Positions 2,882 to 34,614 of a DNA stretch of 64,000 nt are shown here, one piece after another; positions within the stretch are counted from its first letter, which is position 1; each line of letters begins with the position of its first letter. The position numbers and the translations under genes are program-made. The notes below the pieces were generated by a model. That model did no database searches, had not been told where the DNA came from, and was given only the letters and a program-made list of their open reading frames with translations. Source of the stretch: Somniosus microcephalus (Eukaryota); the NCBI GenBank assembly GCA_052327205.1, contig CM126228.1, positions 20,150,001 to 20,214,000 on the forward strand, written 5' to 3'.

Positions 2882-3023
2882 TTTTCCAGTTCTGACAATG
2901 GGTCATCGGCCTGAAACGTTAACTCTGTTTCTCTCTCTACAGATGCTGCCTGACCTGCTGAGTATTCCCAGCATTTTTTGTTTTTATTTAAGCTTTCCAG
3001 CCTCTGCAGTGTTTTGCTTTTGT
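2882..3023 (+). mobile_element. Short Penelope-like pLTR fragment (family A) with a degenerate hammerhead motif
   Basis: Matches the 3' end of the GIY-YIG element at 15362-16577; 10-bp TSD CCTAGTATAT (2872-2881 / 3024-3033). Confidence 0.82.
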
Positions 3024-3228
3024 CCTAGTATATCAATATCTGGTACTCTGAATCAGAATGTTGTGAATGGACAGCAGTCTTCTAATCTTCATTGATTTAC
3101 AACTCATTAATCGCCATGGTTTTCACACCTTGCTCAGTTGCCTTCTAAACTGGACTCAGTGTTACTGATTAAGGAACTGAAATCAAGGGGGGTATTTACA
3201 TTTCTCACCGTGCACATTTCAGATGTAG

Positions 3229-3692
3229 ACACTTTACAACCTTCCAGACTTAACACTGATTTCAATAACTTCAGATCATAACCACTGCTCCTATTTTTTC
3301 AGACAGCAGGTGTTGATAATGGTTCTGTTGTTGCCATTTACAGCTCCTCTAGACCCATCTTTTGTTTCTTTACTTGTCCCATTATCACCCCCTTTTGCCT
3401 CACACCATCATCGCCTGTCATTTAATCACTCCTGCCTTCCACCCTATCACAGACCTTCCCTACTGTTCTTTCCTCCCCTCCCCCCCCCCCCCCCCACCAT
3501 TTCCCTGCCTCTGTACTTGCTTAAAAACTGTTACATCTCTAACTTCTCCCAGTTCTGACGAAAGGTCATCAGCCTGAAATGTTAACTGTTTCACTCTCCA
3601 CAGATCTGCTGAGATCTGCCTGACCTGCTGAGTATTTCCAACATTTTCTGTTTTTATTTCAGATTTCCAGCATCTGCAGTATTTTGCCTTTG
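3229..3692 (+). mobile_element. Penelope-like element 3' end (end of GIY-YIG ORF plus pLTR, family A)
   Basis: Encodes TLQPSRLNTDFNNFRS*, homologous to the end of ORF 15854-16183. pLTR with CTGACGA...GAAA core at 3555-3579. 11-bp TSD TTCAGA(T/C)GTAG (3218-3228 / 3693-3703). Confidence 0.88.
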
Positions 3693-3989
3693 TTCAGACG
3701 TAGGCTTATTGTGCAAGATATGAAATGCATGGAAATGTACAATAATTATGTCCTGACACCACTCTGATTCAGAACACTAGGTATCGGGTCCAATACAGTC
3801 GTAAAGGGGAAAACTGGGCAAGAAAAACAAGGGGAAATCAGCGGCTGCAAGTGGAAACTCTGTGGCAGGTGCTAAGGTCTATGACAGTGGAATCATGGAG
3901 CATTAGTGGCCTTAATAATAATTCCTAAACCTTTTCACCAATCTTTGCCACTGAGTCTTCTAAACAGTCCTAAAAGAGTTTTTTTTTAA

Positions 3990-4336
3990 TTCATTCATGG
4001 GATGTGGGTGTCACTAGCAAAGCCAGCATTTATTGCCCATCCCTAATTGCCCTTGAGAAGGTGGTGGTGAGTCGCCCTCTTGAACCAGTGCAGTCCGTGT
4101 GGTGAAGGTACTCCCACGGTGCTGTTAGGGAGGGACTTCCAGGATTTTGACCCAGCGACTGTGAAGGTAACATGATATATTTCCAACTCAGGATGGTGTG
4201 TGACTTGGAGGAGAACTTGGAGGTGATGGTGTTCCCATACGCCTGTTACCTTATCCTAGGTGGTAGAGGTCGGGGGTTTGGGAGGTGCTGTCGAAGAAGC
4301 CTTGGCGAGTTGCTGCAGTGCATCTTTTAGATGGTA
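3990..4336 (-). mobile_element. 3' end of a non-LTR retrotransposon (same family as 23261-23712)
   Basis: Reverse complement matches 23340-23700 (CACCACCACCTTCTCAAGGGCAATTAGGGATGGGCAATAAATGCTGGC). Confidence 0.85.
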
Positions 4337-4447
4337 CAAGAACTTTTGCCAGCCAAAGTGATGTAGTGATCCCAGTCTCCTGGTCCAGTTTTACTAATGT
4401 AAGAAGTCACACAACACCAGGTTATAGTCCAACAGTTTTATTTGAAA

Positions 4448-4484
4448 TCACAAGCTTTCGGAGCGCTGCTCCTTCGTCAGGTGA
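4448..4484 (-). ncRNA. Predicted minimal type I hammerhead ribozyme (family B), inverted copy
   Basis: Exact reverse complement of 4897-4933. Confidence 0.75.
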
Positions 4485-4896
4485 AGTGGAGAGATGCATA
4501 AAGACACAGCTTATATAGTCAGAGAATAATGCCAGATGATTACAGGTAATCTTTCTAACTGCCATTTATCACACCTCGGCAGAGAGATAATCACAGCAAT
4601 CAAAGGTGTGAATGGTGTCCAAACAGGTCAGTCAGGAAAACATTACATCAAAGAACAATGAGGTGGGGTCACAAGGGGTCAAATGTTGCAGATGCTGGGG
4701 TCTGTATGAAAAACAAAAAACAGACAAAAAAACATTTTTTTTGCTGGAAATCACAGCAGATCCGGCCGCATCTGTGTAGAGAGAGCAAGCCAACGACGAC
4801 TCGAGTCTGGATGACCCTACATCAGGTGGGGTTACCTGTAATCATCTGGCAGTGTTCTCTGACTATATAAGCTGTGTCTTTATGCATCTCTCCACT

Positions 4897-4933
4897 TCAC
4901 CTGACGAAGGAGCAGCGCTCCGAAAGCTTGTGA
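4897..4933 (+). ncRNA. Predicted minimal type I hammerhead ribozyme (family B)
   Basis: TCAC-CTGACGA-A-GGAGC-AGC-GCTCC-GAA-AGCT-T-GTGA: helix I TCAC/GTGA, core CUGANGA/GAAA, 5-bp helix II, palindromic loopless helix III (AGCU). Confidence 0.75.
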
Positions 4934-5388
4934 TTTCAAATAAAGCTGTTGGACTATAACCTGGTGTTGTGTGACTTCTTACATTTGTCCACCCCAGTCC
5001 AACACCGGCATCTCCACACCAGTTTTACTAAAGCTGCTGACATCATTTATTTACCTGAGGTATACTATCATCTTCAGACAATCTTCAGGCTAACAAATGA
5101 AAGCAGAAATATTTTTAACAGGGACTAATGCTCAAAAATGCGTTAATGTTAAATCAATTATAAAATGAACGGAATAAATAAATGTTCCTCAGTGATTTAC
5201 CTGGACATATTTTAATTGTCTTACAATGAAGCAAAACTCTGTTTTCTTGAGTGATGCAGTCTGCAGAAGAACATACGTCCTGAGGTAATTCAAAGCATTG
5301 GTAGGACTCGTTTCAAGAGACCTAGGTTTATTTGTATTCCTCCCCGCAGTCTTCCTGTCCTGAAGCAGCGACTTGTACTGGGGTACAG

Positions 5389-5629
5389 TTCACTCAGAGG
5401 GTTGTGAATCTTTGGAATTCTCTACCCGAGGGCTGTGGATGCTCAGTCGTTGAGTATATTCAAGGCTGAGATCGATAAATTTTTGGACTCTAGGGGAATC
5501 AAGGGATATGGGGATAGGGCAGGAAAGTGGCATTGATGATGTTAAAGTTCAGCCATGATCTTATTAAATGGCGGAGCAGGCTCGAAGGGCCGTATGGCCT
5601 ACTCCTGCTCCTATTTCTTATGTTTCTTA
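5389..5629 (+). mobile_element. CR1 LINE 3' end
   Basis: TTCACTCAGAGGGTTGTGAATCTTTGGAATTCTCT (FTQRVVNLWNSL) followed by the conserved 3'UTR and TTCTTATG tail. Confidence 0.88.
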
Positions 5630-8102
5630 AGTGACAGCGGCTCTTCGATACCAATTTGCCATAGTCAATACTGGAGTGTGGACAGTGACTGGCAAGATAC
5701 TCAAAGTTAAGACCAGTCCTGTGCTCATCTGCCATGCACACATATGCCTTCCAACAGAAGTATCTGGATAATAATCGGGCACAGCAATCATGACCCACTT
5801 TTTTTCTCTCATCCTTGGCCCAGAAACACCAAGACCAATTATATTGCCCTGTTGCCACCCTAGATACGATCACTTAAATCAACACAGACCAGCAATTGAT
5901 CTTGGCATCTACCTGGTCAGAATTGTTCAGTGCCATACTACGTGGCACATTTGCCCATTCAGCATTCATGAAGGTGCTGTGAATTGTATTTCTGTTGAAA
6001 TTTTGACAATGTTAAAGCAATTCCTCCGAATGTGATACTTGATTTCTTTTGTAGGAGAAGGAATGAACAATTCCATGACCGAACTTAGGAATCTGTGAAT
6101 GTTGAATCCATGAAGTGGGGTCAAATCTGCATTTAATTCTGGAAAGCAGTGTGTTTAAAAGCACATCCTGGAGCTGCCTGCTTGTTTTGAGAGACAGATT
6201 TCTTTGTTCCTATAGCCAAGCGTACATATCTGTGGTAACATTTTAAAACGCTGTGCATAATTGCTGTAATTAAGAGACAATTTACTCAACTATAACATTC
6301 TACTGTTTGAATTGCATGTCTAACTTAATATTTGCTCTTGTATATCATCAGTAATTCTGCTTTTACTCACCATGGAACCCTTCGCATGTATGCTTTCTAG
6401 AAGTCTTTGAGAAATAAGTGGAAAAGGTGACCATGTGATGTTAAAATCAGCATCTTACTTACAGTGCAATTCTAAACCCAAATAATCTCCTCGCTGGACT
6501 TTGGCGTTGGCACCATCCCTAACTGCTGTGTCAAATAGAATTCTTGTTAATGTATCTAGTATTTAGTCTATTCCTTAGAGTAAAAGTGCACACCAAATAC
6601 AATGTGATGGACAAGGGTCGCAGAAATCATTAAGGCAGTTAATCCGTTGGTGATATTTAACCTTTAGAGGACAATGGAACACTTTCTGACAAAAATAGAT
6701 AGCAAAGACAGTTGCAATCATAGCTTGATAGGTTGATGCTTTGAGTGTAGCCCTTTGTCATGTTGACGAACTGTTCTGATGATCAGGCAGACTTCAAACA
6801 TTAACCTTATTTTTCTTTCCCTGAGGCGTATCAGCCTGCTGTGACATTCCAGCATTTTTGTTTTTTGTTGCAGATTTTCAACAGCTTTTCTTTTACTCGC
6901 AATGTTGGAGCAGCCAAATGCTGTGATTTTTCAGATTTCTCGAATTCTATCTTATATAATGCTAGTCAGTTGTTGAAACTTAAATAAATTCACAGTGTGA
7001 GATGTTGTGCTGTAAAAAACGGATTCATTCACGAATCTGTGGCATTTCTCTTTAAAAAAAACACATTATAAAGCCAGGGTTTGTAGAACCTTCTCCACAA
7101 GCAACAGTTATAGCATTTAGTAATTACTCTCTATTTCTGGTACACAGATCTGTGGCAGTACAGAGAAGGTGAGATTGGATGAGTGTTTAGACTGCATCGG
7201 GTGTAATTGCATATCTGAGTCCTGACAGCAGATCCAGATGTCTGTGGTAAGTAGATGATGAATATTGGCTTCTGCAAATGTAACTGTGTTTGTTGTAAAT
7301 TAATTAAAATCCTAATCCCTCCTTTTGAACGGTCAAGAATTTAGATTTACTGCAGGAGAAATCGTTTTTCACCCACTTCAGTGAATGCAGTATTGATGAG
7401 TGCCTGTTCTCACTGACATTCAAAGTTTAAACTAGGGTCAACACAGCCTTTTCTATAATATATACACAAGAGAAAGTTCGAAAGCCAAGTTTTAATGTAG
7501 TTTAATATGCAAATTTCTAAATTCTTTAAGGCGGCAGGTCATTTAACACTTTGTTCCTATTAAAGATATGTCACTTTAATAAAGAATACTAAAGGATGAC
7601 TAGGTCAGCTTGTTGATTGCAAGCTGAAACATGTGGAATCTCAGTTCTGTGTGTATTAAATGGGTGGGTTTTACACCTGCTTTTAATAGGATAGAGGGCA
7701 TCATACAGAAAACAGTTCTTTTAATCAGTAGCCAAACCAAAATGTAATTAAATGATTTAATAAAAGTAAAAATACAAAATCACATAACAAAACTTCACAC
7801 TGCACTAGGTGTCGTGTCTGCTGCAGTGTTAACTTGCCCACGTTTAATATTTTGGGTGCAAAATAATCACAAGTACACTGGCAGCCTCAGCCATCTGCTG
7901 CTGAAACCAACATCCATTCTTTTGTTACCTCCAGACTTGAATGCTCTCCCATCTTCCACCCACCATCCCAAACTCTGCTGCCCACATCCTATCTCACACC
8001 AAGTCTCATTCACCCACAACCCCAGTGCTCACCGACCTACATTGGCTTCCGGTCGACCAACACCTCGATTTTAAAATTCTCATCCTCCTGCTCAAATCCC
8101 TC

Positions 8103-8951
8103 TGACATGAATCTTGTCATTCATGTGGAAATGACTTAGGAAATGATACTGGGCGGCCTGCTGGTGGCGCTGTCCAGGGAGAGTATAAATACTCGGGCAT
8201 GGGTCCAGCTTGCTCAGGACATTCTTTAACAGGAACTAGTGAAGGACACAATTGGATCTCCATGTTGAAAAACAGTTGATTAGAGCCTTGTTTAATACTT
8301 AGACCAAGTGCCTAGTAGTTTCCTTACATCAATTTAATCAACTGCAACCCGCTCCACGCTCTGAGTGATTTGGGAACAGACAGCTATGATTCAAACTGGA
8401 GAAGGGAACTCGGATGTAGTAATCAATCCATCATGGAGAAACTACTCAGATCCACCTGTCTTGACCTGGACCCGAATTCACTTACAGCTGCTAAGGTATG
8501 GCAATGCTGGTATTGTACCTTCAGCAACTTTCTCGAGGAGTGTGGTGAGAATGTTCCTAATAAGTTACAAATGCTTGCCAATTATGTATCCCCTCATGTG
8601 CTTGACTATATTGAAGACTATGTAGACTATGACTCCACTATCCAAACAACTGCGTCTATTCTTAGTCCGATTAATTCGGTAGAAGGAAGCTGCCGGACTT
8701 CCAATCATTCAGGCGGGAAGAATGACATGAATCTTGTCATTCATGTGGAAATGACTTAGGAAATAATACTGGGCGGCCTGCTGGTGGCGCTGTCCAGGGA
8801 GAGTATAAATACTCGGGCATGGGCCCAGCTTGCTCAGGACATTCTTTAACAGGAACTAGTGAAGGACACAACTAGATCTCCATGTTGAAAAACAGTTGAT
8901 TAAAGCTTTGTTTAATGCTTAGACAAAGTGCCTAGTAGTTTTCTTACATCA
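8103..8951 (+). mobile_element. Miniature non-autonomous LTR retrotransposon (849 bp): LTRs 8103-8331 and 8723-8951, 391-bp internal region
   Basis: Two 229-bp TG...CA direct repeats differing at 9 positions; 5-bp TSD CCCTC (8098-8102 / 8952-8956); polypurine tract AGGCGGGAAGAA just before the 3' LTR. Confidence 0.95.
8433..8648 (+). pseudogene. Truncated N-terminus of a Gypsy-type Gag
   Basis: MEKLLRSTCLDLDPNSLTAAKVWQCWYCTFSNFLEECGENVPNKLQMLANYVSPHVLDYIEDYVDYDSTIQT resembles, from memory, the M(D/E)KLLRPxRLDxDPNSxxAAKxWxHWxxTFxNF start of aquatic-animal Gypsy Gags. It lies immediately downstream of the 5' LTR. Confidence 0.75.
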
Positions 8952-11900
8952 CCCTCAATAGTCTCGCCCCTCCCTATATCTGTAACCTCCTCCAGCCCTA
9001 CAACCCTCCGAGATCTCTACGCTCCTCCAACACTGGCCTCTGGTGCATCCCCTACTTTCTTTGCCATACCTTTGGCAGCCGTTTAGGGCTGAAGCTCTGG
9101 AATTCCCTCCCAAAACCTCTTTGCCTCTCTACCTCCCCCTCCTCCTTTAAGATGCTGCTTAAAATTTACATCTTTGACTAAGCATTTGGTAACCTGCCCT
9201 AGTGTCTCATTTGGTTCTGTGTCAATTTATGTCTGACTACACTCCTGTGAAGCACCTTGGGACATCTTACTACGTTAAAGGTGCTATATAAATGCAAGTT
9301 GTTGCTGATTTACTGAATGAAAAGCAAAGTTACAGTCACACTGAAAGAACTTCAGATAACCTGGCTCCAACCACTCACTCACTGTTCATATGCGCTATTT
9401 AAAAAAGGCAGTACTGCACACTGTAACCTTAACCACAAACTGCCGTCTGACACCCAACACTGTGGCTTTAGTGTTGATTTTTCAGAGCAGTCAGTACCCT
9501 GTCTATTCAAGAATTGAATCAACCTGAAAGGTGATCCTGTTCCTTTTAAACATAAGGGCTGTGAAAATCTGGCAGCCTGGGAGGGTGGTTTTGCAGCACA
9601 ATATCTGCGGAGAGGAGAGGTGTGGCTTTGGGATGGAAACCTGACCTGGCATGGCGCTATTGCTTTTCAGTCCCGTTGAAAATCCCAGCCTTTTTGGGGC
9701 AAGCCGATAACACGCCTGCCCAAAAATGGGTGGCCATATTATATTCTAACTTAAATAGAAATATGTCATATGAAATATTTCCCTCATTTACACCCTTAGC
9801 AACACTGGATGCCAGGGACGCCCATGAGTCCCGAAGATCAGGCATTGTTCAGGCCATGGGTTTGAGGGGAGCGATTCTACAGTCACAGCCAGTTTTGGGA
9901 GTGCTACGCATCTCTCCCTCACGGGCATGGGCAACGCCTAAGATTTGGCCTGGCACATGCCCATTTTTTGTTGTTGCTGGGATCAGAAAATCAGGCCCTC
10001 ATGGTGTGCTCGATGATAATCAATTTCACCTTAGCACCATCAGCATTAAATATAAGGTACATGACTCCGGTAATTGTGTGATACAGATCAGCCCTCGCTT
10101 AATCACATGTTTCCTGAACAATGGAAACTTGCTGTGGGGTGAAAGTTGGGTCTTAGCGTTATAGTACTGAAGATGTGTGTTTGTCGTTAATCTCATTGCC
10201 AACGTAATCGCTGAAGATCACAGTGCACCATATTTCAGGTGTAACCCAAATCTACAATGTTCAATGTCCTTCTCCTACATTTTCATACTCCATTCTTTTT
10301 ATACCATTCAATACTATCTTATGCTGGGCTCCTGATCTTTTGTAAACAATGGCAAATAAATACACAGCAAAATGTTTAAATCAATTGCAACCCATTTATT
10401 TCATTCATTGTATGTGACATCTAACCAACTGCTGGTTCTCTTTTGCAAGGATTATGTATGCTGGCGGCTGTAAGATTACACCGGCCGTCTGCTGGGATTC
10501 TGGCCCCTTTGGCTTAACGTTGTGAGGGCTCTCTGCTTGTTAGCTATGTCCCAAGACTGATTGGTGCTGCTGGCTTCCTGCTGCCACCTCCCATGCCTGC
10601 TGTACCTGAGGCTTATAAAGGGCCAGCCAATAAGGAGTCCCTGATTCCTTGCAATGGGGTTTCCAGTCCCTAGACTGTAAAACTGGCTAAGCACACTCTA
10701 ACATCCCATTCTTAAGCAAAATTTTGCTCAATTAACAGCTATCTTGGACTTTCAGCTTTAAATGCCTCCAAATTTCAGTTCAAAGCTGACTGTAGCTTTT
10801 TTTTTTCATTGGTTGCCCTGCTGTGCAGGAGTTAAAGTTAACCTTTTGGCCCTAGTAGTAAACATTGTGTGTTAAGAAGGTTTCTTTGTAACCTTCAACA
10901 GTAACCCTCAGTTAACTCCTCAATGGAAACCTGTTGCAAACACCCCAACACAAGTGGTTCCCCCATAGCGTTGTGTGTCTGTGCTGCTTGCTAGCAGTTT
11001 GTAAACCTCGATTCATAATGGCAGATCTCTAAAGCACCTCATTAAATTACTACCAGCACTATGAAATAAATACTGCACCAGCAGCAATCCAGACTGCAAT
11101 TCCTTGGTATAATGTACCCGGTTGTAATGAATCCCCATCTACAAGGAACAGTTTGAAATATCCTGATTCAAATGTGTTATAATTCTATAATAATATAATA
11201 TCGCTTGAACAAATGATTCAAATGTATGTCAGCAGGTTCATTGTATAATTTGGAAAATTACACTGCTCAATCTCCGGAGAGATCCTCCACCAGCTGTATT
11301 GTCTGCTTCCTGGCTGCTCGTCCTCCATGGATTGCAGTGATTGCACCTCCATGATATGGGAACAAACCAGTCCTGTGAACACAGATAACTTATCCTGTGT
11401 TCCAGCATCTCATTAGGTTCTGCTAGCGAGAGAGAGCGTCAGACCTCCAACATAACCCCCCCCCCCCCCCACCCCACCTTCCTCCAGGGCTTTGTCAGAA
11501 TTCACTTTGTTAAAGGTCACCCTGCTTTTGAACAAGACCCCGATATAAAATGCACTTTTAGCACTGGGGAAATTGGCGCTCATTACATGTGGGGTCCGCT
11601 ATAATGGGAAAACTGAAGGAAGGTTTTCCTTCAGTGAACAGTTGCACTGCTTCTTTGCTAGATACACCACAACGGTGTGCTACTGGAGTAGGAGGAAAAG
11701 CTGGTCGCACCTTCTTGCCCACAGATGTACACCTTCTGTCAGCAGCTCCTGATGTGGAATTACCAGTAATGCGGAGAAACAGTTCAGACAGCTTCGCCTT
11801 GTGAAGTGCGGTGACAGGACGCGGCAGTCGGGGCGGAGGAGAGTCTAGATTTTTCTTTGAAAGACAAAGTGAATGTGCCGCTTTAGTTTTTTTTATATAA

Positions 11901-13840: not shown

Positions 13841-13939
13841 TCCAGTCACATTCTCAATGCCATGGCGGCCCTGAGGGAGTGCTTCAAGTCATAGCACAGT
13901 ACAGGCATAAGTGGACAGTCACTACATTAACACAATAGC

Positions 13940-15361: not shown

Positions 15362-16577
15362 AATAAAAACAGAAAATGCTGGGAATACTCAACAGGTCAG
15401 ACCACCTCAGAAGGCCATGTCAACCACGGTAGAGGGGAATCCTTGGTTGAGGAAAATGGAAGACACTAGTGTGGAAGCTGGCATCGTCAGAACAGGCCCG
15501 CAACCATGTCCATTCCATTTCCCGCACTTCTGCTCTCACCCCTTTCCCTCCCTCCCAGAACCATAATAGGGTTCCCCTTGTCCTCACCTTTCACCCCACC
15601 AGACTTCACATTCAACGGATCATCCTCCGCCATTTCTGCCCCCTCCAGTGTGATCCCACCACCAAACACATCTTGCCCTCCCCTCCCTTTTCAGCATTCC
15701 GAGGGGACTGCTCATTCTGCGACACCCTGCTCCACTCCTCAATCACCCCCAACAACCCCTCCCCTTCCCACGGCACCTTTCTGTGCAAGTGCAGGAATGT
15801 AACCCCTGCCCTTTTACCTCCTCCATTCCCAGGGCCCCAAACACCCCTTCCAGGTGAAACAGCGATTTACTTGTACTTCTTGCAATTTAGTATACTGTAT
15901 TCACTGCTCACGATGCGGTCTCCTCTACATTGGGGAGACCAAATGCAGATGGGGTGACCGCTTTGCGGAACACCTCCGTTCAGTCCGCAAACCTGACCCT
16001 GAGCTTCCGGTCACCTGTCACTTTAATTCACTGGACCACTCCCACTCTGACCTCTCTGTCCTCGGCCTCTTACACTGTTCCAACAAAGCTCAACGTAAGC
16101 TCGAGGAACAGCACCTCCGCTTTCGATTAGGCACTTTACGCCCTTCTGGACTCAACATAGAGTTCAACAATTTCAGACCATAACTTTTGCCCCTATTTTT
16201 TCAGATGGCAGCTGTTGCTGATGATTCTGCTGTTCCCATTTACACCTCCTCTAGACCCATCTTTTGCTTCTTTACTTGTCCCATTACCATCTCCTTTTGC
16301 TTTGTACAATCATCCCTTTTGTCATTTAATCTCTCCTGCCTTCCATCCTATCACAGACCTCCCCTTTTGTTCTTTCCTCCCCTCCCCCCTTTCCCTGCCC
16401 CTGCACTTGTTTAAAGTATGTTGCATCTCTAACTTTTTCCAGTTCTGACGGAGGGTCATCGACCTGAAGCGTTAACTCTGCTTCTCTCTCCACAGGTGCT
16501 ACCTGACCTGCTGAGTATTTCCAGCATTTTCTGTATTTTATTTCAAATTTCCAGCATCTGCAGTAGCCTGCTTTTGT
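15362..16577 (+). mobile_element. 5'-truncated, 5'-inverted Penelope-like retroelement (family A)
   Basis: GIY-YIG ORF, RT-linker remnant (RVPLVLTFHP..LHIQRIILRHF..LQ.DPTTKHI), pLTR with hammerhead motif at 16440-16478, inverted pLTR piece at 15362-15403, 14-bp TSD AGAA(C/T)GTTGACAGG (15348-15361 / 16578-16591). Confidence 0.93.
15854..16183 (+). pseudogene. GIY-YIG endonuclease domain of the Penelope-like element (frameshifted from the upstream linker)
   Basis: KQRFTCTSCNLVYCIHCSRCGLLYIGETKCRWGDRFAEHLRSVR...HFNS..HS..DL.V.GL...R...E...L.FRLGTL.P.GLN: NLVY/YIGET motifs, catalytic R/E and GLN terminus. Confidence 0.92.
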
Positions 16578-21812: not shown

Positions 21813-21904
21813 TGTGTATTTTAACCAGCGGTACAGTTTTATGATGTTACACATTTTTTACCTAAATGTTAAGTACCTTGCATACAAAAATCATAACTAT
21901 AGCT

Positions 21905-23712: not shown

Positions 23713-24254
23713 ATAGAGAACTTAACCATATCCTCACACCATTTATAATGATCCATTAATCTTCCTTTATGTCTTGTGAGCTCTCTGTCCATATATCACA
23801 GAAATGATGCACTCCACAGCTGTGCAGTCTCATTGTATGTTATTAATATCAGTTGTCACTGTTTACATAGTTCTGCATCATTCTTTCGCATAGTTCTGCA
23901 TCATTCTTTCAAGGTCCTTCTGATTGGCTGCTCAGCTTTGTGGCTCTTTAACATACTCAAACTTCCAGAAGAGCATCACGGTTGACGTGCCTGTGAATGC
24001 ATTTTTTTTTAAAGTAGGCAACATTTAAATTTAATTCCCACTTGAATGCACCTTTCCACAATGCAGCATTGGGAGTTCCTGCTGCAAGAAGTGCTGGAGA
24101 GAAGGATGGCCTGTTTTGGAGCAGAAGGGCACCATCTCTAGCATGATAGCAGGCCAGGTGGAAGTAGCAGGAAAAAGTGAAATATTGTCTGGCCAGTGAC
24201 CAGATCCTGAGAGCAGGTAAGGAAGAAATTTGCTGGTCTCCAAAAGATTGCCAA

Positions 24255-24362
24255 GGTCCGACGAAGGGTCACAGACCTGAAACGTTAACTCTGTTTCTCT
24301 CTCCACGGATGCTACTTGGCCTGCTGAGTGTTTCCAGCATTTTCTGTTATTTCACCTTTTGC
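24255..24362 (+). mobile_element. Short Penelope-like pLTR fragment (family A) with hammerhead motif (one core change, CCGACGA)
   Basis: CCGACGA-A-GGGTC-ACA-GACCT-GAAACGTT-AACT followed by the family A tail. Confidence 0.8.
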
Positions 24363-25028: not shown

Positions 25029-27687
25029 GAAAAATTACACTTTACAATGGATCTCAACAGCACGTCCCTGTAAGCTTAGTGGAACATCACCAAGGAAGAA
25101 TGCACAGCACACTGGCGACTGTTCACATACTTGTATGGTTTAGCACTTCACTCTGCGTCGCGGCCATGTTAATGTGTTCGCCCTGTGGCCCATGAAATGT
25201 GGCAAGGAACAAATGCCAATTAGACAAGCCAACACTGCTTGCTACATGTTCGCAGCCTCACATTAAGTGACTGATGGGAAAGGCCCTCTTCTGTCACGAG
25301 ATGAGGTACGAACTCTTCTTCTTCACCCATGACATTGACTCTTTACAGGCCAAAGCTACGGAAGGTGCATTAGGTTGCAATCATCTTGGATACCTAAGCA
25401 GGCCCGTACTGTGAACCTCCTTGGATTTTGTCCTTCCTCCTCTGGAATCGGCAGAGAGAGGGGAGTGGCCAGTGGGATAGTCATAAGTTCTGCTTCAACA
25501 GAGCTCAGTTATGATTTCCTCAACCAACAGCCACCTGCCATGGTTATTCATTGACTCCACTCCCCGCTTTAATGTCCGCTCAGTTATGCTTGCATTGCAT
25601 CAGTCGCTCCGAGGCTGTATACCTACCACCAGCGGTGGGTATAATGAGTCAACATACTGTCCTTCCATCTCTTAAACCTGGGGTTGAGTCAAGCTCAGAC
25701 TCTCAAATTGAAAGTCGGATTTCTCTGCTAATTACAACAATAACAACTTGCATTTATATAGCGCCTTTGACGTAGTACAACGACCCAACGTCCCACGTGA
25801 AATAAATTTGGAGAATCACAAGCCTGTTCCTAAAGACGGTGGATCCACAGCGCCAAACTGTCCACAGGTTAGTAGAAATTGGCAATCAAGTTGGTAAATT
25901 TCATTCAAAGGCCATTCAAATGACCTGTATGTTATGGAAAATTCACACTGGGGAAGTATGAAGTGCTTTTCTGAGGCAGAACAGCATGCATCCTCATGAG
26001 ACAGAATAAAGGGAGCTTTATGTTGCATATGGCTATTCTATACCTAACCTTGTAGTGCTGGGTGCCTGAAAATAAAGTGCATTATTCCCTAATTCTGTCA
26101 TCCCTCGCCTTGCTGAACACAAAAAATAATCAAAAAGGTACATTTTGCTCTCACTGTTTAGGGAGGATGGATATAATCGAAAAGGATAAAATTAGCCTTT
26201 TAACATTATTCTCTGCTACATCAAAATACCTTGCTCAAATGAAGAGTTCTATTTAAAATGCTAATGTGTTGTTCTCATTCAAATGGTGACTGCCTTGCTG
26301 TTTATTTCCAAAATGTCCTGTTTTTGTTCAAATAATTCAATCAATCAGTAGGGGATTCATTAGAGCAAGAAAACAGCAAGACTTAATGTGGCTGAACTGT
26401 TCAGGCAATGAAATTCTACAGACTTTCCCTAGCCTGACCTACATTTTCATTATCTGGTTTTTCAGTTTCATCAATGTTTTAACTAGATGGGCTTTAGAGA
26501 TTATTCTCCTCAATCACTGATGTCAATGGAAAACTAAGAAAAAGTGGCAGTCCAAAGCCCTCGATCTGCCTGAAGTCCCTAATTTTCTCAATCAACATAT
26601 ATGGCTGTGTACAATATTTAGATTTGGGTTCAGAGTTCTGTTTTGCTTAGGGTCTCGGCAACAAGCTAAACCCACTCCCATTGGAGGAGGTGAAAGAGCT
26701 GAGCCATTCCAATCTATATCAGTCTGCAAACATTGCCATAATTAAGAAACACTACATTATTAATCATATGACAACAGATGGTACATAACACTGACCATAG
26801 AAACTCGCCTGAAGACTCACATTAGGATAATAAGTGCCTTGGGATGTTTTACTATGTTAAAGGCACTGTATAATACAAATTGTTGTTGTTGTCATAGCAT
26901 GATATGGGGCAGAGAGTGGGTGAAGACAGTCAGGAATAAAGGATGTGTAGTGAAAAGGCACAGGAAACAAGAGAATAAAGATCCTACACTGTCGAATGGA
27001 TCATTTTAATGTATATACTTTACATTTTAAATATGAGATTCTGGAATATCAATAATTTCAGTACATTTAAATCCAATCAACAAGGAACGTCTACTTGATT
27101 ATCTTCCTGGAACGCCCAATCACTTCTTCTCTGGAAAATTTCAAAGATAATTCTGACCAGACGAGTATCTAGGATTTATGTTCAACTTAATAGTATAACC
27201 ACTTTATAATATTCAAGATAAATAGGCTGAGGAACATGGGTACGAAGCTAATAAGGACACATGAAGGCTTTCATGAATGCTTAATGTTCATAAAGCCAGT
27301 ACTAATGTTTGGCTAAGATTATTCTAGTTGAAGGTGTTACAACCAATGTATTTGACCCCTTCTAAGGCAAAGTATTTGACTATCTGATACTTACGGGCAC
27401 TGTGCCCAGGATGATAGACATCATATGCATATGTTAAGGAGGTGCCCAGCCACAGCCAAGTTCTCGGAGGATGTCTTTGATATCCCGAAGAGTATACTGA
27501 AGTACACATGACCACAAATTGCTGGAATAGCAATTACTGGAATAATGCCATTGCACAGTAAGCCTATAAATCATAAGAACTGCTTTAGCTAGGTTTAGTT
27601 CTAGTTTATATATATATATATATAAGCATTAGAAAGTAATGCAAATGTCTGCCACATAAAAAAGAATGGGAAAATATACAGCTTGAT

Positions 27688-27897
27688 TCCTAACGGTCTG
27701 CCTGAAACGGTGGTGGGAGCTGATTCCATCAATAATTTTAAAAGGGAGTCGGACAGGTACTTGAGGATGAGGAACTCACAGGGTGAGGGACACGAAGCGG
27801 GGATGAGGGGCTAAGCACGACTGCTCTTTCAAAGAGCCAGCACAGGCACGATGGGCCGAATGGCCTCCTTCTGTGCTGTAAGTTTGTATGATACAGT
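27688..27897 (+). mobile_element. CR1-like 3' end (second subfamily)
   Basis: CTGCCTGAAACGGTGGTGGGAGC...GGCACGATGGGCCGAATGGCCTCCTTCTGTGCTGTAA. Confidence 0.8.
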
Positions 27898-28999
27898 TTA
27901 GGCAGAACTGCTTTTGGTTTAAAAGGTTGCACAGATGTGCACAAGATCCCTTTAGGAATTTGTAGTAAAGGCCTTATAGTCATGATTGGTTCCATGAAAC
28001 AGCGTCACTGCTGGAAAGGAACAGAGAACATTTGTCCTCCTGCAACTTCCCATCAATTCTTTAGAAAAAATGTAACTCTCTTTCCAGTTAGTTATTTTTA
28101 CGTGTCATCTTTATTCCGTGAGAAATGGGTATTTGTCGGATTTTTTCTGTATTCATAATATCAAGATGACATCCATTTCAATGATGAGGAAGTGAAGTGA
28201 CTGCAATCCAGTGGGGTAATTTGTGGGGTTTCCTGTGGAGGACATCCGCTGACAAGCATTGCTATGAATGCAACTGGTCAGTGTCCAGATCAATCAGGAG
28301 CTGTCTCTTTTCTTTTATTAACTTGGTTCCCCCCACTCTCCCAAGAGTGTCTGTTGTTTGTGTAGAAAAACAGGAACAGAAGTAAACAAGAAAACTGAAA
28401 ATTAGGATAATATAAGCTTTGCAAACAGTTTACTTTTTGCAAACTTATTAGTACCAGTTTCCATAGCTACTGGGGCACATGAGGCCATGAAAACTTTTTT
28501 CTTTTACCAGCATAAGCACGCATGTAGTGTTTAAAATAATACCATATAATTGCATATGTACCTGGGAGAAATCTAATAATGGGATGGGTAATGCTATAAT
28601 TTATTTAGGAAGAACCTAGGATCAGCAGATTGGCTGCTGAAACAGAGATCTGAATTGGAATAAAGACAGAGAAAGCGGTTTTGTAAAAGGAATGGTTTCT
28701 CTTGAATATTATTCAAACCCAGCTTTATATATACATTGGTTAAATTGCATGCTCTGGCGGACTACTATCATAACCAGGGTGCTGACAATTCATCCAGAGC
28801 AGTATCCTTTTCACAGGCACGTTCACATCAGAGTGATTCAGTGTTGTTTACGCCACCAAGTTCATGCAATCTGTATGGGATCCACTTGAAGGCCCAATTA
28901 ATAGTTTCAGTAAGACAGAGTTAAAATTCAGATTGCATTGAGGGCTATATGTGGCCCTTCTTATGTGCTTCATCTCCTAGTATGACTGAGAGGCATTGA

Positions 29000-30470
29000 A
29001 TGTGGTAACTGGGCACTTAGAAAATCAGAATATGATTGGGCAGAGTCAACAAGGATTTATGAAAGGGAAGTCGTGTTTGACAAAGCTGAATTTTTTTGAG
29101 GTTGTAACTAGTAGGGTAGATAAGGGGGAACCAGCGGATGTAGTGTATTTAGATTAAGTGAGTGGGCAAGAACATGGCAGATGGAATATAATCTGGAGAA
29201 ATGTGAAGTTATCCACTTTCGTAGGAAAAATAGAAAAGCAGAATATTTTTTAAATGGTAAGAGACTGGGAAATGTTGGTATTCAGAGGGACCTGGGTGTC
29301 CTTGTACACGAATCACTGAAAGTTAACATGCAGGTACAGCAAGCAATTAGGAAAGCAAATGGTATGTCAGCCTTTATTACAAAAGGATTGGAGTATAGGA
29401 GTAAAGAAGTCTTACTACGATCATATAGGGCCTTGGTGAGACCACACCTGGAGTACGGTGTACAGTTTTGGTCTCCTAGGATATACTTGCCTTAGAGGGA
29501 GTGCAATGAAAAAAGAAAAAAAAGACTTGCATTTATATAGCGCCTTTCACGACCACCAGACATCTCGAAGCGCTTTACAGCCAATGAAGTACTTTTGAAG
29601 TGTAGTCACTGTTGTAATGTGGGAAACACGGCAGCCAATTTGCGCACAGCAAGCTCCCACAAACAGCAATGTGATAATGACCAGGTAATCTGTTTTTGTT
29701 ATGTTGGTTGAGGAATAAATATTGGCCAGGACACCGGGGATAACTCCCCTACTCTTATTCGAAATAGTGCCACGGGATCTTTTACGTCCACCTGAGAGAG
29801 CAGACGGGGCCTCAGTTTAACGTCTCATCTGGAAGACGGCACCTCCGACAGTGCAGCACTCCCTCAGCACTGCACTGGAGTGTCAGCCTAGCTTTATGTG
29901 CTCAAGTCCCTGGAGTGGGACTTGAACCCACAACCTTCTGACTCAGAGGTGATTGCGCTACCAACTGAGCCACAGCCGACACTAAGGTTCACTAGATTGA
30001 TTCCTGGGATCAAAGGGCTGTCCTATGAGGAGAGATTGAGTAGACTAGGCCTATATTCCCTAGAATTTAGAAGAACAAGAGGTGATCTCATTGAAACATA
30101 TAAAATTCTTAAGGGGCTTGACAGGGTAGATGCAGGGAGGATGTTTCCCCTGGCTGGGGAGTCTAGAACCAGGGGTCACAGTCTCTGAGTAAGGAGTCGG
30201 CCATTTAGGACTGAGATGAGGAGAAATTTCTTCACTGAAAGGGTTGTGAATCTTTGGAATTCTCTGCTCCAGAGGACTGTGAATGCTCAGTCGTTGGTTA
30301 TATTCAAGACAGAGACCGATAGATTTTTGGATACTAAGGGAACCAAGGGATATGGGGATAGTGCAGGAAGGTGGAGTTGAGTTAGAAGATCAGCCATGAT
30401 CTTATTGAATGGTGGAGCAGGTTCGAAGAGCTGAAAGGCCGACTCCTGCTCTCATTTCTTAAGTTCTTAC
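29000..30470 (+). mobile_element. CR1 LINE (RT C-terminal half, internally deleted) with a nested SINE
   Basis: ORFs 29181-29495 (MEYNLEKCEVIHF.RKN...QRDLGVLVHESLKV...[15 protein letters not shown]) and 29898-30188 (FTRLIPG.KGLSYEERL.RLGLYSLE.RR.RGDLIETYKIL); intact 3' tail. Confidence 0.93.
29509..29983 (-). mobile_element. SacSINE1-like Deu-domain SINE inserted in CR1
   Basis: Full-length reverse complement of 12468-12935. Confidence 0.9.
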
Positions 30471-30559
30471 ATTGCCACATCTGACTGTCCTAAACACATA
30501 TTGTAGGTACTCTAACTTTCTCTGAAACTTGAAAAAACACTGCACATAAGCAGGCATTT

Positions 30560-31656
30560 CATAAGAACATAAGAAATAGGAGCAGGAGTAGGCCATTTGG
30601 CCCCTTGAGTCTGCTCCACCATTCAATAAGATCATGGCTGATCTGATCTTGGCCTCAACTCCACTTTCCTGCCCGCTCCCCATAGCCCTTGACTCCCCTA
30701 CAGCTCAAATATCTGCCTAGCTCAGTCTTGAATATATTCAATGACTCCGCCTCCACAGCTCTCTGGGGTAGAGAATTCCAAAGAGTCACGACCCTCAGAG
30801 AAGAAATTCATCCTCATCTCTGTCTTAAATGGGTGCCCCCTTATCCTGAAACTATGTCCCCTAGTTCTAGATTCCCCCACGAGGGGAAGCATCCTCTCAG
30901 CATCTACCCTGTCAAGCCCCTTCAGAATCTTATATGTTTCAATAAGGTCACCTCTCATACTTTTAAACTCCAATGAGTATTGGCCCATCCTGCTCAACCT
31001 TTCTTCATAAGACAACCCTTTCATCTCAGGGATCAACCTAGTGAACCTTCTCTGAACTGCCTCCAATGCAGGTTCGAAGGGCTGAAAGGCCGACTCCTGC
31101 TCTTATTTCTTAAGTTCTTATGTTCTTATAATGCCACAATAAGGAGACCAAAACTGCACGCAGTACTCCAGGTGTGGTCTCACCAACGCCCTGTGCAGTT
31201 GTAGCAAAACTTCCCTACTTTTATACTCCATCCCCCTTTGCAATAAAGGCCAACATTCCATTTGCCTTCCTAATTACTTGCTGTACCTACATGTTAACTT
31301 TTTGTTTCATGTACGAGGACCCCCAGATCCCTCTGTACCGCAGCATTCTGTAGCCTCTCTCCATTTAAATAATATTTTGCTTTTCTATTCTTCCTACCAA
31401 AGTGGATAACCTCACAATTTCCCACATTATACTCCATCTGCCAAATGTTTGCCCACTCACTTACCCTATCTATATCCCTTTGCAGACTCTGTGTCCTCCT
31501 CACAACTTGCTTTCCCACCTATCTTTGTATCGTCAGCAAATTTGGCTACAGTACACTCGGTCCCTTCATCCAAGTCATTAATATAGATTGTAAATAATTG
31601 AGGCCCCTGCACTGATCCCTGTGGCACCCCACTAATTACAGTTTGCCAACCTGAAA
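30560..31656 (-). mobile_element. CR1 LINE, tail-to-tail with the previous copy
   Basis: Minus ORFs [39 protein letters not shown] (RT catalytic motif), LQRDIDR.SEWA..WQMEYN, and EAVQRRFTRLIP.MKGLSYEERL. Confidence 0.95.
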
Positions 31657-32185
31657 AGGCTGCATCATGTGTCACATATATACCCACACAATACACGGTG
31701 GTGCTTCGACTTTCAGAGGAACATGAAGCGCCCAACAGTAAGAAAAATGTTATACATAACTACTGGTACATCATCTAAAAGGTCAAACCTGCACTAGTAA
31801 ATCAGTATTAATATTGGCCCCAAGGAGTACAATGACATTTTGATGTCATAACATGTATGGGTTTGTGGGGGGTGGGTGTTACAGTGGCTCCAACATAACC
31901 TTAATCCACTGTTTGACCTCCCTCTGATTGTAGGGGGGAAAGTGACAGTGTAAAACCACTTGGACATATTGGATTTATACTGGGATTTTTTTGCCTTGTT
32001 TATGCCACTATGAGCAGGATGCAGTTTTGCCGTCACCTTTGCAATAAAGCCTTGCATTAAAGTAAAAACACCATATAACTCAGGAGTCAGATTAGCACTG
32101 TGAACTATAGGAGGACAAGTGATTTTGTACTATATCCTCCTGGTCTCTCCAATAATGTCCTAATATCCTTTAGGGAAGGAATAAT

Positions 32186-33178
32186 GGGGGCGAAATTCGG
32201 TATCACCCCGTTTGGGGCGCTAGTATTGGCGGTGCGCAAAGTTTAGCGCCAGGCGCAAATTATCGCCACCTCCTGTGAAATTGGGTACCTGCGCCCCTGA
32301 GGGTGATTGCGGCGCTAAATCAGGCGCTGCACGACAGTCTTAAGGCGCTAACCCAGCGGAGCGAGGCGCTATCTCACAGTGCTGGCGAAGCTCATGTGAT
32401 TTCAGTCAGCAATGGAACACAGACACACTGGCACCATCCAATTCTTAAAGGGGAGTTCTGACGAATGGTCATCGACCTGAAACGTTAAATCTGTTTCTCT
32501 CTTCACAGATGCTGCTTGACCTGCTGAGTTTCTCCTGCATTTTCTGTTTTTTTCTTAAAGGGGAGGGTTGATCTTGCCTTGCTCTCCATCCACATCCTGC
32601 TCATTGCAACCTTGAATCTCAGCCTGGAGAGACCTGTACATCTAATCTGCTGGAAAGAACAATGGAGAGAACCAGGGAAAGATCTCAAGAGTGCAGCCCC
32701 CACAGTCTCTTCTAATTCGATACAAGGAAGGGCAAATCAAAACCAACCTGCAAAACTCCTTCACACAGCGTGGAATCTCTCCAGAAGTCTCTCTCTCTCT
32801 CTCTCTCTCACAATGTGTGGTGCAAAAATGTCACCTTCAAAAAAGGCAGGAGGTGTTCCCCTTTAAATAGCGCTCCCTTAGTCCCTTTCAGACAGCATAA
32901 CGGTCCCCTCAACCAGTCATTGCTAGCGCCAGGCGGTAAGGCAGGGGGCGCCACTGAATTTCTGGACTGGGGCGTCCCAAGGGCGTTGCACTCTGGAATG
33001 ATGTCATGATCTGCGTGCGCCGGTGAGCGGGCGCTACGGTTTAGCGCCGGCGCTAAATGTCCGCTCAATTTGGGAAGAGGCACAGGGTTCGCTGCGCCCA
33101 GGCGCTAGTTGGTTAGCGCCCCACTTCTCGACCTCTTTAGGCGCTAATGGGTGGTGCAACCAACCGAATTTTTCCCCC
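32186..33178. mobile_element. GC-rich PIF/Harbinger-type non-autonomous element (993 bp including nested insert)
   Basis: TIRs GGGGG(CG/AA)AAATTCGGT; 3-bp TSD AAT (32183-32185 / 33179-33181); many GGCGCTA/TAGCGCC subterminal motifs. Confidence 0.87.
32456..32551 (+). mobile_element. 96-bp Penelope-like pLTR fragment with hammerhead motif, nested in the MITE
   Basis: 14-bp TSD TTCTTAAAGGGGAG (32442-32455 / 32552-32565); TT-CTGACGA-AT-GGTC-ATC-GACC-T-GAAACGTT. Confidence 0.88.
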
Positions 33179-33186
33179 AATATCTC

Positions 33187-33385
33187 TAATATCCTTTAGG
33201 GAAGGAAATCTGCCGTCCTTACCTGGTCTGGCCTATATGTGACTCCAGACCCACAGCAAGGTGGTTGACTCTTAACTGCCGTCTGAAGTGACGGCTCACC
33301 ACCACCTTCTCTAGGGCAATTAGGGATGGGCAATAAATGCTGGCCTTGCCAGCGACGCCCACATCCTAGGAACAAATAAAAAAAT
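33187..33385 (+). mobile_element. 5'-truncated SINE-like element sharing its tail with the 23261 LINE family
   Basis: A distinct body (CCTTTAGGGAAGGAAATCTGCCGTCCTTACCTGGTCTGGCC...) joined to the tail GGCTCACCACCACCTTCTC.AGGGCAATTAGGGATGGGCAATAAATGCTGGCC. Confidence 0.7.
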
Positions 33386-33897
33386 AGGTGAAAAATATCA
33401 TGCTGTCAGACGATATATTTGAAACTATGAATTGTTTACTCCTAGTAAGAAGTAAACACAGAAGTGAGTTTATTAAACAGATACAAATACCGATACAGTA
33501 CCTATTCAAGTGTTATCTTAACCCAACATGTTTTGGAATAATTAGATTCATTTTCTCCAGCATTTCAGATGAAGCATAATATGGGCTCCAAGTACCATGG
33601 AGTTCCTTCTCATCACAGTGACTTGGGTCTGTGATAAGAAGCCTTTCATATCATAGGTTTGAATACCAGCTTCCCTAACATGATGCCCCTGGACAGGGTT
33701 GGCTATTATAGATAACAGCTGTATCTCGGTATTTGGAAAATTTACAAGGATTGCCTGAGGAATTGATCAAACCAGTTTAGCCCTGATAGGCTTGCCATCC
33801 TTTGGAGTTAGCGCCTATACTCCAGACAGGTGCATGGTATTTGCTTCTACTTATAGGCTAATAAAGATGAAAGGACCAAAAGAAACATTTTTTGGAA

Positions 33898-34296
33898 CAG
33901 GGGAGGCTGAAGGGAGACCTACTTGAGGTGTATAAAATTATGAGGGGCCTAGATAGAGTGGATAGGAAGGACCTATTTCCCTTAGAAGAGAGGTCAATAA
34001 GCAGGGGCATAGATTTAAAGTAATTGGTAGAAGGATTAGAGGGGAGTTGAGGAGAACTTCTTTCACTCAGAGGGTGGTGGGGGTCTGGAACTCACTGCCT
34101 GAAAAGGTGGTAGAGGCAGAAACCCTCATCACATTTAAAAAGTACTTGGATATGCACTTGAAGTGCTGTAACCTACAGGGCTACGGACCAAGAGCTGGAA
34201 AGTGGGATTCGGCTGGAGAGCTCTTTGTCGGCCAGCACAGACACGATGGGCCGAATGGTCTCCTTCTGTGCTGTAAGTTTTTATGATTCTATGATT
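33898..34296 (+). mobile_element. CR1 LINE 3' end
   Basis: RLKGDLLEVYKIMRGLDRVD.KDLFP...RRTSFTQRVVGVWNSLPEKVVEAETLITFKKYLD and an ATTCTATG tail. Confidence 0.9.
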
Positions 34297-34429
34297 AACA
34301 GAAACAACAGTTAACAAAAATCAGTTTTTTTTTATTAATAAGTGATGCTCCCAGACAGAATTGTGTGTATTTGCTCAAAGCACACTCATCCACACAAAGA
34401 CAGAATAAGCAATGAACAGAGATTAATTT

Positions 34430-34614
34430 TAAATAAAAACAGAAAATGCTGGCGATACTCAGCAGGTCAGTATTTGAACCTGACGAAAGGTCATCGACCT
34501 GAAACATAAACTCTGTTTCTCTCTTCACAGATGCTGCCTGACCTGCTGAGTATCTCCAGCATTTTCTGTTTTTATTTCAGATTTCCAGCATCTGCAGTAT
34601 TTTCTTTTTGTATT
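34430..34614 (+). mobile_element. 185-bp Penelope-like insertion: short inverted pLTR piece, hammerhead motif and tail
   Basis: 34431-34470 is the reverse complement of 34539-34578; CTGACGA-A-AGGTC-ATC-GACCT-GAAAC at 34480-34505; 12-bp TSD AGAGATTAATTT (34418-34429 / 34615-34626). Confidence 0.88.

Follow-up and report, generated by a model that had tools for sequence, protein, structure and literature searches.

Short hammerhead-bearing insertions scattered through the window (the whole 64-kb stretch of DNA analysed) are, to judge from their sequence, 5'-truncated copies of two families, A and B, of Neptune-type Penelope-like retrotransposons (PLEs), and their 5' ends pile up just in front of the ribozyme. 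The stop in front of the motif likely marks the start of the element's RNA. The reading that we prefer, at slightly better than even odds (about 0.5), is that copies starting just ahead of the ribozyme core arise by reverse transcriptase (RT) priming in the start of the ORF, followed by run-off from an uncut mRNA that begins at the ribozyme's first bases. The elements belong to a known class, and hammerheads in PLE repeats, like the mass occurrence of single motifs in truncated PLEs, are already in print in the available text of PMC4209133. Clustering of PLE 5' ends at the ribozyme is unreported in the literature searched (subscription papers, Repbase and Dfam lying outside that search). Many copies together with young, intact elements make up a record of RT end points at base resolution. 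This record says that the usual template is uncut RNA, indicates a single boundary, at the first bases of the ribozyme, and bears on the role of the PLE hammerhead and the origin of PLE partial tandems, which are questions in PMC4209133, PMC2377424 and PMC11167929, as far as their available text goes.

The autonomous element and its copies

Intact units are ~3.15 kb long, carry RT and GIY-YIG domains and are arranged as head-to-tail partial tandems. Intact 977-aa frames are found in many loci outside the window, in a genome of 6.45 Gb, and the intact elements are young (99-100% identical). A single ORF encodes RT and then a C-terminal GIY-YIG endonuclease; in the translations of both families the endonuclease is preceded by a CX2-5CxxC linker and has the CCHH residues, two cysteines lying inside the GIY-YIG motif and the histidines later (definitions of both from the available text of PMC8557442). 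Domain order and linker motif argue for placing the elements with Neptune. Partial tandems forming pLTRs, the inverted 5' copy, the optional 30-40-bp tail and target-site duplications (TSDs) of variable length are all present. The proteins of families A and B are only ~27-46% alike; an 841-aa frame (locus L171) matches RVT_1 and GIY-YIG, both below the Pfam cut-offs. The ribozyme lies 48-51 nt upstream of the ATG, which follows the predicted cut by ~21-23 nt.

Copies are inserted with TSDs, often with an inverted tail-less arm, and TSDs of ~9-15 bp are visible in many rows of a first-pass 5'-end listing. The short copies comprise the ribozyme and the ORF's opening 15-27 codons: every copy terminates at either of two ORF sites, 15 or 27 codons in, and a census of the 5' and 3' ends of genomic copies has two 3'-end clusters ~35 nt apart.

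The window's features are collected in Table 1. The preliminary description placed at least six family A copies here, and all six that it lists are found in the sequence, five with duplications of 10-14 bp as claimed; reading the flanks of the sixth, at 24254, yielded no clear TSD. The shortest do begin within about 10 nt of the core: with core C3 as 0, their 5' ends fall at about -10 (2882), -4 (24254), -4/-2 (32456) and 0 (34480, behind a 40-bp inverted arm). None of the six is free of lesions in core or helices, and the window's copies are mostly fossils whose ribozymes are damaged. The insertion at 15362, which had been taken for the GIY-YIG-encoding parent, is a truncated, endonuclease-only stump; its frame shares 87% identity, over 116 aa, with the C-terminal end of the intact ORF (977 aa) in L353, and the intact frames lie elsewhere. 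What looked like a degenerate A insertion at 4690-4826 is part of a family B 3' UTR. The copy noted at 38795 is a real family member, of another subfamily. The flanks of the 96-bp copy at 32456 are common to four other loci (L003, L018, L044 and, downstream, L024; five loci in all), which therefore makes it one insertion carried by another repeat.

Table 1. PLE-derived features of the 64-kb window
Feature	Position	Strand	Details
Family A1 short copy with tail	2882..3023	+	core C3 at 2892, G8 changed to A; TSD 2872-2881/3024-3033 (10 bp, exact)
Family A1 copy: endonuclease end, 3' UTR, ribozyme, tail	3229..3693	+	C3 at 3555
TSD of the 3229 copy	3218-3228/3693-3703		11 bp, 1 mismatch; 13 bp with 2 mismatches
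Family B head-to-head unit	4398..5018	.	TSD 4385-4397/5019-5031 (13 bp, exact)
Family B unit, minus arm, tail-less	4398 to ~4831	-	core at 4480
Family B unit, plus arm with tail	4832-5018	+	core at 4901
Dead A-like ribozyme/ORF-start module in family B 3' UTR	4690..4826	-	flank shared by 19 copies
Old family A short copy	6768..6886	+	core at 6776
Truncated A1 insertion, 1.2 kb, without RT	15362..16577	+	TSD 15348-15361/16578-16591 (14 bp, 1 mismatch); in order: inverted tail-less 40-bp arm 15362-15400, inverted ORF piece ~15400-15495, forward ORF end, UTR, damaged ribozyme, tail
Damaged core of the 15362..16577 insertion	C3 at 16445	+	changes A9G, A15.1G
GIY-YIG endonuclease frame, 126 aa	15803..16183	+	Pfam GIY-YIG E 0.006, below cut-off
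Family A1 short copy, tail-less	24254..24353	+	start at -4; core U4 changed to C
Family A1 copy, 96 bp, tail-less	32456..32551	+	core at 32458; TSD 32442-32455/32552-32565 (14 bp, exact)
Carrier repeat around the 96-bp copy	32190..32958	.	bounds approximate; right end beyond 32958
A1 unit	34430..34614	+	TSD 34418-34429/34615-34626 (12 bp, exact); main copy with tail, starting at C3 (34480), behind a 9-nt filler and the inverted tail-less arm 34430-34470
Two head-to-head family A ends without room for a ribozyme	38113..38245	.	
Family A copy, A2/A3 type, ~440 bp	38727..39169	-	U3-A8 core, position 3 at 38825
Short family B piece	39173..39259	+	head-to-head with the A copy 38727..39169
Decayed, old head-to-head family A pair	53687..53843	.	

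Where the 5' ends fall

Positions are counted from core C3 (0), with negative numbers upstream. Plotted in this way, truncation points are not uniform: they pile up at the ribozyme, as the preliminary description had supposed, and do so in family A, in family B and in the youngest subfamily, A3. In a census whose loci were partly chosen by ribozyme motif or endonuclease, 55 of the 217 A1 copies at risk end at 0..-9 (3.4%/nt), compared with 25/248 at +10..+1 (1.1%/nt), 10/132 at -10..-19 (0.8) and 0.1-0.4 in the rest. For family B the corresponding figures are 23/101 at 0..-9 (2.5%/nt) and 11/112 at +10..+1 (1.0), the other bins holding 0.0-0.4. Censored were 120/306 A1, 5/43 A2 and 15/125 B copies; anchors whose ends fell inside the anchor (19 A, 6 B) were excluded. 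The pile-up spans about -4 to +6 in A and -8 to +5 in B, and its ends retain the whole motif, starting at or just past the first strand of helix I. The A1 edge is the softer one, with 21 ends at -12..-5 against 44 at -4..0 and several inverted junctions reaching -11/-12. A2, for which the reference had A1 ribozyme letters and many copies were picked on the endonuclease, is counted as a miss (0/36 ends at 0..-9, 4 at -10..-19). The first pass also yielded false 5' ends, caused by subfamily differences in the UTR, by another element inserted at the palindrome (~+25 to +28) and by shared carriers, and these were censored in the later census.

The A3 copies were picked by a motif downstream of the ribozyme. 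Ten of 39 arms (7/28 sites) end at -4..+6, none at -5..-31, six at +10..+35, four at -32..-68 and 19 beyond -80. A sequence-only model read 28 of these arms; the other 11 were read by eye because the model had put several 5' ends as much as 15 nt out of place. Three wide inverted pairs were skipped for size, and inclusion of their 6 arms makes the count at least 10/45. Two of 12 near-full-length loci start exactly at -4. All 18 of the loci L353-L370, picked for their long frames, have a partial upstream unit that continues past -4.

The predicted cut site is without a peak (ends at +28 and +29: 1 and 1 in A1, 0 and 1 in B), and cleavage therefore does not set the boundary. The proposal that the ribozyme defines a template boundary stands to the extent that ends cluster there, and fails in that the boundary is not the site of self-cleavage.

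The hammerhead

The core, CUGANGA...GAAA..UH with helices I and II and a palindromic helix III, is that of a minimal type I hammerhead. Exact motifs of 33-39 nt are found 3,368-14,883 times in the genome, and the reversed control gives 0; this recurrence is not chance. Exact core matches number at least 31,389, and roughly half a million by local density, which bears out the very large ribozyme population that had been predicted. A1 and B have a C3-G8 core pair; among the first 100 of 19,225 A7-pattern matches, 81 are U3-G8, 17 U3-A8, one C3-G8 and one C3-A8. The covariation proposed between the two families is also seen: helix positions pair in 87.1% of 240 cells against 81.8 when shuffled, with two-sided change at 10/12 pairs, most of it owed to the single distinct B row. 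Folded as monomers, none of the 9 does better than its shuffled versions (z -1.18 to +0.26). An Rfam scan of the window gave no hammerhead family match at E<=1, none to tRNA, 7SL or 5S (Pol III promoter sources), and three unrelated weak matches. A core-like match also lies inside the ORF, in antisense.

The proposed run-off, and its rivals

In the run-off reading, the mRNA would hold two sets of the priming sites, one close to its 5' end and the other at its 3' end. From the 5' set, synthesis would cover no more than 100-135 nt, a length that matches the short copies; from the 3' set would come ordinary truncations and, rarely, full run-offs to the same base. Tandems longer than the unit would require read-through transcripts or template jumps. 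The hard upstream edge of A3, with its downstream tail, fits run-off. In vitro, a PLE RT starts at two internal ORF-start sites and uses uncleaved RNA (PMC11167929, available text), and Penelope transcription starts inside the upstream pLTR (PMC2377424). Counting against run-off, the start of D. virilis Penelope lies 46 nt before an intron (PMC2377424 and the available text of PMC4209133), and therefore well upstream of the ribozyme. The softer A1 edge, the A2 miss, the motif- or endonuclease-picked loci of the census, the upstream units that in most intact copies continue past -4 and the RNA reads described next weigh against it as well.

Two raw RNA runs cover the junction and the ORF start and have no read-start pile-up at -4 or at the cut; their strands disagree, the reads come from many host-embedded copies, and the libraries need not keep RNA ends. 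The initiator consensus is YYANWYY, and the edge fits it if +1 is placed at -4 (A) or -7 (B), a short match made post hoc. An untemplated G before -4, of the kind expected from copying of the cap, appears in one row of the first-pass listing and is absent in L376, L396 and L398.

A fuller scenario, speculative and rather doubtful, makes the hammerhead the first element of the mRNA, which would start at the first helix. Cleavage would clip a capped leader of ~30 nt some 20 nt before the AUG, and the ribozyme would switch between translated or decaying RNA and uncut template. The hundreds of thousands of short copies would then be integrated strong-stop products, the PLE counterpart of retroviral strong-stop DNA, whose jumping to the 3' pLTR would account for partial tandems.

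The main rival, a real if lesser possibility, is a structural stop at the finished hairpin: 3'-primed RT would be released once helix I is complete, and the cDNA would fold back (helix I/II, palindrome) and then snap back or join the target. Helix I begins exactly at the A edge (-4), many of the junctions at the ribozyme consist of fold-backs or short palindromes (palindromes at inverted junctions are noted in PMC3846280), a second priming site becomes unnecessary and most long copies continuing past -4 are explained. However, helix folding is weak (z from about 0 to -1.2), the B peak reaches -8, beyond the helix I base (-4), and a block by RNA structure or bound protein would be expected at +30, on the 3' side, and no peak lies there. 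Capped 5' end and structural stop offer a sharp contrast, with intact natural elements as material. That the ribozyme's own cleavage determines the template's 5' end is, as the main cause, already contradicted and exceedingly unlikely: the main peak is ~30 nt upstream of the cut with the whole motif kept, neither A1 nor B nor A3 shows an excess at the cut, and the main in-vitro substrate is uncleaved RNA in the available text of PMC11167929. The covariation of core and helices between families speaks for it, as does one of the 12 near-full-length A3 copies (L399), which starts at +27, the predicted cut after GUC.

The preliminary description saw in the short copies SINE-like mini-elements. Their spread as a SINE- or retrozyme-like non-autonomous family from short master loci is improbable, although secondary spread exists (the carrier repeat at 32456; the L372 unit) and PLE-derived non-autonomous ribozyme repeats are known (PMC4209133 and bioRxiv 10.64898/2026.07.22.740005, available text). 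A SINE has its own master with a fixed 5' end; here 5' ends vary base by base over ~15 nt, the arms of inverted units vary independently, inverted arms and tails are PLE-like, the short copies have the sequence of the autonomous element's ORF start, and short A3 copies are identical to intact elements, letter for letter in the stretch read. The peak also persisted after copies with shared flanks were censored. It is very improbable that alignment, sampling or a splice acceptor (CCAG before the core) merely simulates the ends. The false ends of the first pass and the motif-picked part of the A1/A2/B census lend this some weight, but many ends at -4..+6 adjoin an exact TSD or an inverted arm, and the A3 copies, selected by sequence downstream of the motif, hardly differ from the reference. 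The splice-acceptor version was rejected, since family B has no AG there and the census shows no shared upstream exon.

Relation to known systems

The following comparisons hold for the available text of each source. EN+ PLEs of the Neptune type (Craig et al. 2021, PMC8557442) share the single ORF with RT and C-terminal GIY-YIG, the CX2-5CxxC linker, partial tandems, frequent 5' truncation, the inverted 5' copy and the optional 30-40-bp tail; the pile-up of 5' ends at the ribozyme is undescribed there. Minimal type I hammerheads of metazoan PLEs (Cervera and De la Pena 2014, PMC4209133) have the same short helix I, bulge before helix II, G10.1-C11.1 pair, palindromic helix III and U3-A8 core variant, and their thousands of single motifs are attributed to truncated PLEs. 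The numbers given above are far higher, although the counting methods are not comparable, and the youngest expanding subfamily here is U3-G8, which goes unmentioned there. PLE hammerhead dimers are treated by Lunse et al. 2017 (via PMC6765202).

Poseidon PAc of Anolis (Frangieh et al. 2024, PMC11167929) resembles our elements in its ribozyme at the pLTR-ORF junction, two 3' ends one tail apart in the ORF start, use of both target strands and uncleaved RNA as template. In contrast to the arrangement here, its start codon lies inside the ribozyme, and that text does not discuss genomic 5' ends relative to the ribozyme. Non-LTR retrozymes (bioRxiv 10.64898/2026.07.22.740005) are likewise short, ORF-less, hammerhead-bearing and derived from PLE pLTRs, dispersed monomers included. 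They are defined as tandem arrays with at least two ribozymes, whereas the window copies are single or head-to-head; only L372, an internally deleted unit of ~320 nt that occurs outside the window in tandem and inverted forms, resembles such a unit.

Copies of a known class of element

The ribozyme-bearing insertions of the window are copies of two families of Penelope-like retrotransposon (PLE), here called A (with subfamilies A1, A2 and A3) and B. All six family A copies of the preliminary description were recovered (6/6), each with at least one lesion in the core or helices, and the target-site duplications (TSDs) given for five copies are confirmed (10, 11-13, 14, 14 and 12 bp); none was found at the flanks of the copy at 24254. 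A typical insert has an inverted tail-less arm followed by a main copy that carries the tail, the whole flanked by TSDs (an arm is one half of a head-to-head unit, the tail an optional 30-40-bp extension at the element end), which is the PLE layout described in PMC8557442 and PMC3846280. That PLE repeats contain hammerheads, that single motifs abound in truncated copies, and that PLE insertions have tails, inverted arms and TSDs is already published; the elements are new PLE members of that known class, and the added point is a signal in the position of their 5' ends.

The anticipated very large ribozyme population of this 6.45-Gb genome is borne out by at least 31,389 exact core matches (4,052 + 8,112 + 19,225; reversed controls 0-1). 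An Rfam scan of the window returned no hammerhead match. A covariance model trained on 21 hammerhead motifs matches the window at 11 places, of which 10 belong to its own training set; 200 kb of flanking sequence taken without selection gave 19 matches at E<=1, of which 18 reach E<=0.01. That density, ~1 per 11 kb, would imply about half a million motifs in the genome if the sampled region is typical.

The ribozyme motif

Pairing is kept across families in helices I and II, in the palindromic helix III and between positions 3 and 8 (87.1% of 240 cells paired vs 81.8% in shuffles). The proposed structural covariation between families A and B holds in that 10 of 12 pairs show two-sided change in the cross-family comparison, representing few independent events, since most of these changes come from one distinct B sequence. 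For a pattern requiring A at position 7 (19,225 matches), the first 100 have U3-G8 as the 3-8 pair in 81 cases, U3-A8 in 17, and C3-G8 and C3-A8 in one each. The youngest, still intact subfamily has the U3-G8 core with a GUC triplet (locus L353, 6043-6085, and genome-wide), a wobble that may weaken cleavage of the predicted ribozyme; a sister group has U3-A8, a published variant (PMC4209133), and A1 combines C3-G8 with a GUU triplet. Folded as monomers, 9/9 motifs gain nothing over shuffles, as expected, since such motifs are proposed to act as dimers. At six loci elsewhere in the genome (L189, L208, L236, L097, L211, L234) an element with G/C-run ends has inserted at the ribozyme's palindromic loop.

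The parent element

The copy at 15362 had been taken for the parent within the window; lacking a reverse transcriptase (RT), it cannot be. Positions 15803-16183 of this copy hold a GIY-YIG frame, a domain with 89,220 first-look candidates genome-wide; following it led to an 841-aa frame of RT plus endonuclease. Intact 977-aa frames are many; they lie in head-to-tail units of 3,153-3,157 bp that are 99-100% identical, and define the young subfamily named A3. Among PLE clades, the CX4CX2C linker suggests Neptune (or Nematis). Counting from hammerhead core position C3 (=0), as throughout, the ATG lies 48-51 nt downstream and copies stop inside the ORF start at about +96 or about +131, two sites separated by ~35 nt; each "mini-element" thus consists of the ribozyme and the opening 15 or 27 codons of the ORF. 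A1-type ribozymes likewise continue into the ORF (L322, L323).

The inverted arm at 15362-15495 comprises 40 nt from the end of the element joined to the piece of ORF that lies directly upstream of the point where the main arm stops, a layout suggesting that both cDNAs were made from one RNA. Elsewhere, loci L351-L352 (G000:C22, about 1.048-1.057 Mb) form a seamless head-to-tail array of ~2.85 intact units, 99-100% identical, which fits a circular or read-through template.

Clustering of 5' ends

The claim that 5' ends gather at the ribozyme is upheld, and the clustering is a real positional signal that can be tested. After censoring of edge copies, interrupted copies and those with shared flanks, 55 of 217 A1 copies at risk end at 0..-9 (3.4% per nt), against 25/248 at +10..+1 and 10/132 at -10..-19; the 12 remaining bins have 0.1-0.4% per nt. 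For family B the figures are 23/101 at 0..-9 (2.5% per nt), 11/112 at +10..+1 and 0.0-0.4% elsewhere. Ends at the predicted cut (after +28 in A1 and B, after +26 in A3) number two in A1 and one in B. The A2 group, aligned to a faulty reference, has 0/36 at 0..-9 and four at -10..-19. Loci selected for their ribozyme motif or endonuclease are among those counted for A1, A2 and B; such selection depletes core-internal ends and does not favour 0..-9 over positions further upstream.

A3 copies selected on a motif that lies downstream of the ribozyme allow a cleaner test, which covered 28 sites and left out three wide pairs; 11 junctions were read by eye. Ten ends (7 sites) of 39 arms fall at -4..+6, where the downstream background rate predicts ~1.3 (a hand estimate), and none at -5..-31; six lie at +10..+35, four at -32..-68 and 19 past -80. 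In a set of 12 near-full-length loci, selected because their frames are of unusual length, two apparently start exactly at -4 and one at +27, the predicted cut. No report that PLE 5' ends gather ahead of the ribozyme was found in searches of the text of open-access papers.

What sets the boundary

Self-cleavage cannot set the main boundary because the copies retain the complete motif. The peak is explained, with a probability of about 0.5, by run-off of uncut mRNA starting at the ribozyme's first bases. The mRNA would begin near -4 in family A or near -7 in family B, and RT would prime at its start-site copy near the mRNA 5' end and run off after 100-135 nt. Both positions match, post hoc, the initiator consensus YYANWYY. 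The hard upstream edge in A3, the start of near-full-length copies at the same base (-4) and a B edge outside helix I argue for run-off. Against it stand the less sharp edge in A1, with 21 ends at -12..-5, the upstream partial unit that continues past -4 in many intact copies, and the lack of any pile-up of starts in RNA reads from libraries that need not keep RNA ends.

Release of the cDNA by a structural stop once helix I is complete agrees with the fold-back junctions but sits poorly with helices so weak, and is the more doubtful account. As to precedent for run-off, PMC11167929 describes priming internal to the ORF start, shorter products from 5'-shortened templates and use of uncleaved RNA, and the Penelope transcription start lies within the upstream pLTR, the repeat formed by partial tandem of PLE units (PMC2377424). 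In D. virilis the mapped start is upstream of the ribozyme.

Secondary spread of short copies

The flanks of the 96-bp copy at 32456 recur at four other loci (L003, L018, L044, L024); the copy is one insertion multiplied within another repeat, possibly a non-autonomous DNA transposon. Locus L372 (minus strand, 190-920) holds an internally deleted unit of ~320 nt in which the ORF start runs straight into the 3' UTR; the unit occurs both inverted and as a partial tandem, and is a retrozyme-like derivative in the sense of bioRxiv 10.64898/2026.07.22.740005. RNA reads contain joints "going back" 276-302 nt, which fit L372-type units or small circles.

Family B and other features of the window

Family B has the same build as A, with protein blocks 27-46% identical and no DNA-level match found between the two. 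In its 3' UTR, immediately behind the stop codon, family B contains a dead A-like module of ribozyme and ORF start, which suggests that PLE families once recombined or captured sequence from one another; the supposed degenerate A copy at 4690-4826 is this module. Between 38727 and 39259 a family A copy faces a family B piece head-to-head, a few bases apart and with no TSD seen, either by chance nesting or as a mixed insertion.

Further features of the window
Feature	Position	Remarks
Carrier repeat of the 96-bp hammerhead copy	32190-32958	non-coding, G-rich ends; same copy at many sites
Protein-kinase exon	47793-48428	
Second exon of the same kinase gene	60562-61710	

Two head-to-head ends of a common repeat make a near-perfect hairpin at 38641-38725, which produced a spurious Rfam MIR529 match. 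In its repeat content the window resembles a cartilaginous fish. The kinase gene is presumably MAPK6/ERK3-like, and its promoter may be the GC-rich sequence around 39.3-40 kb.
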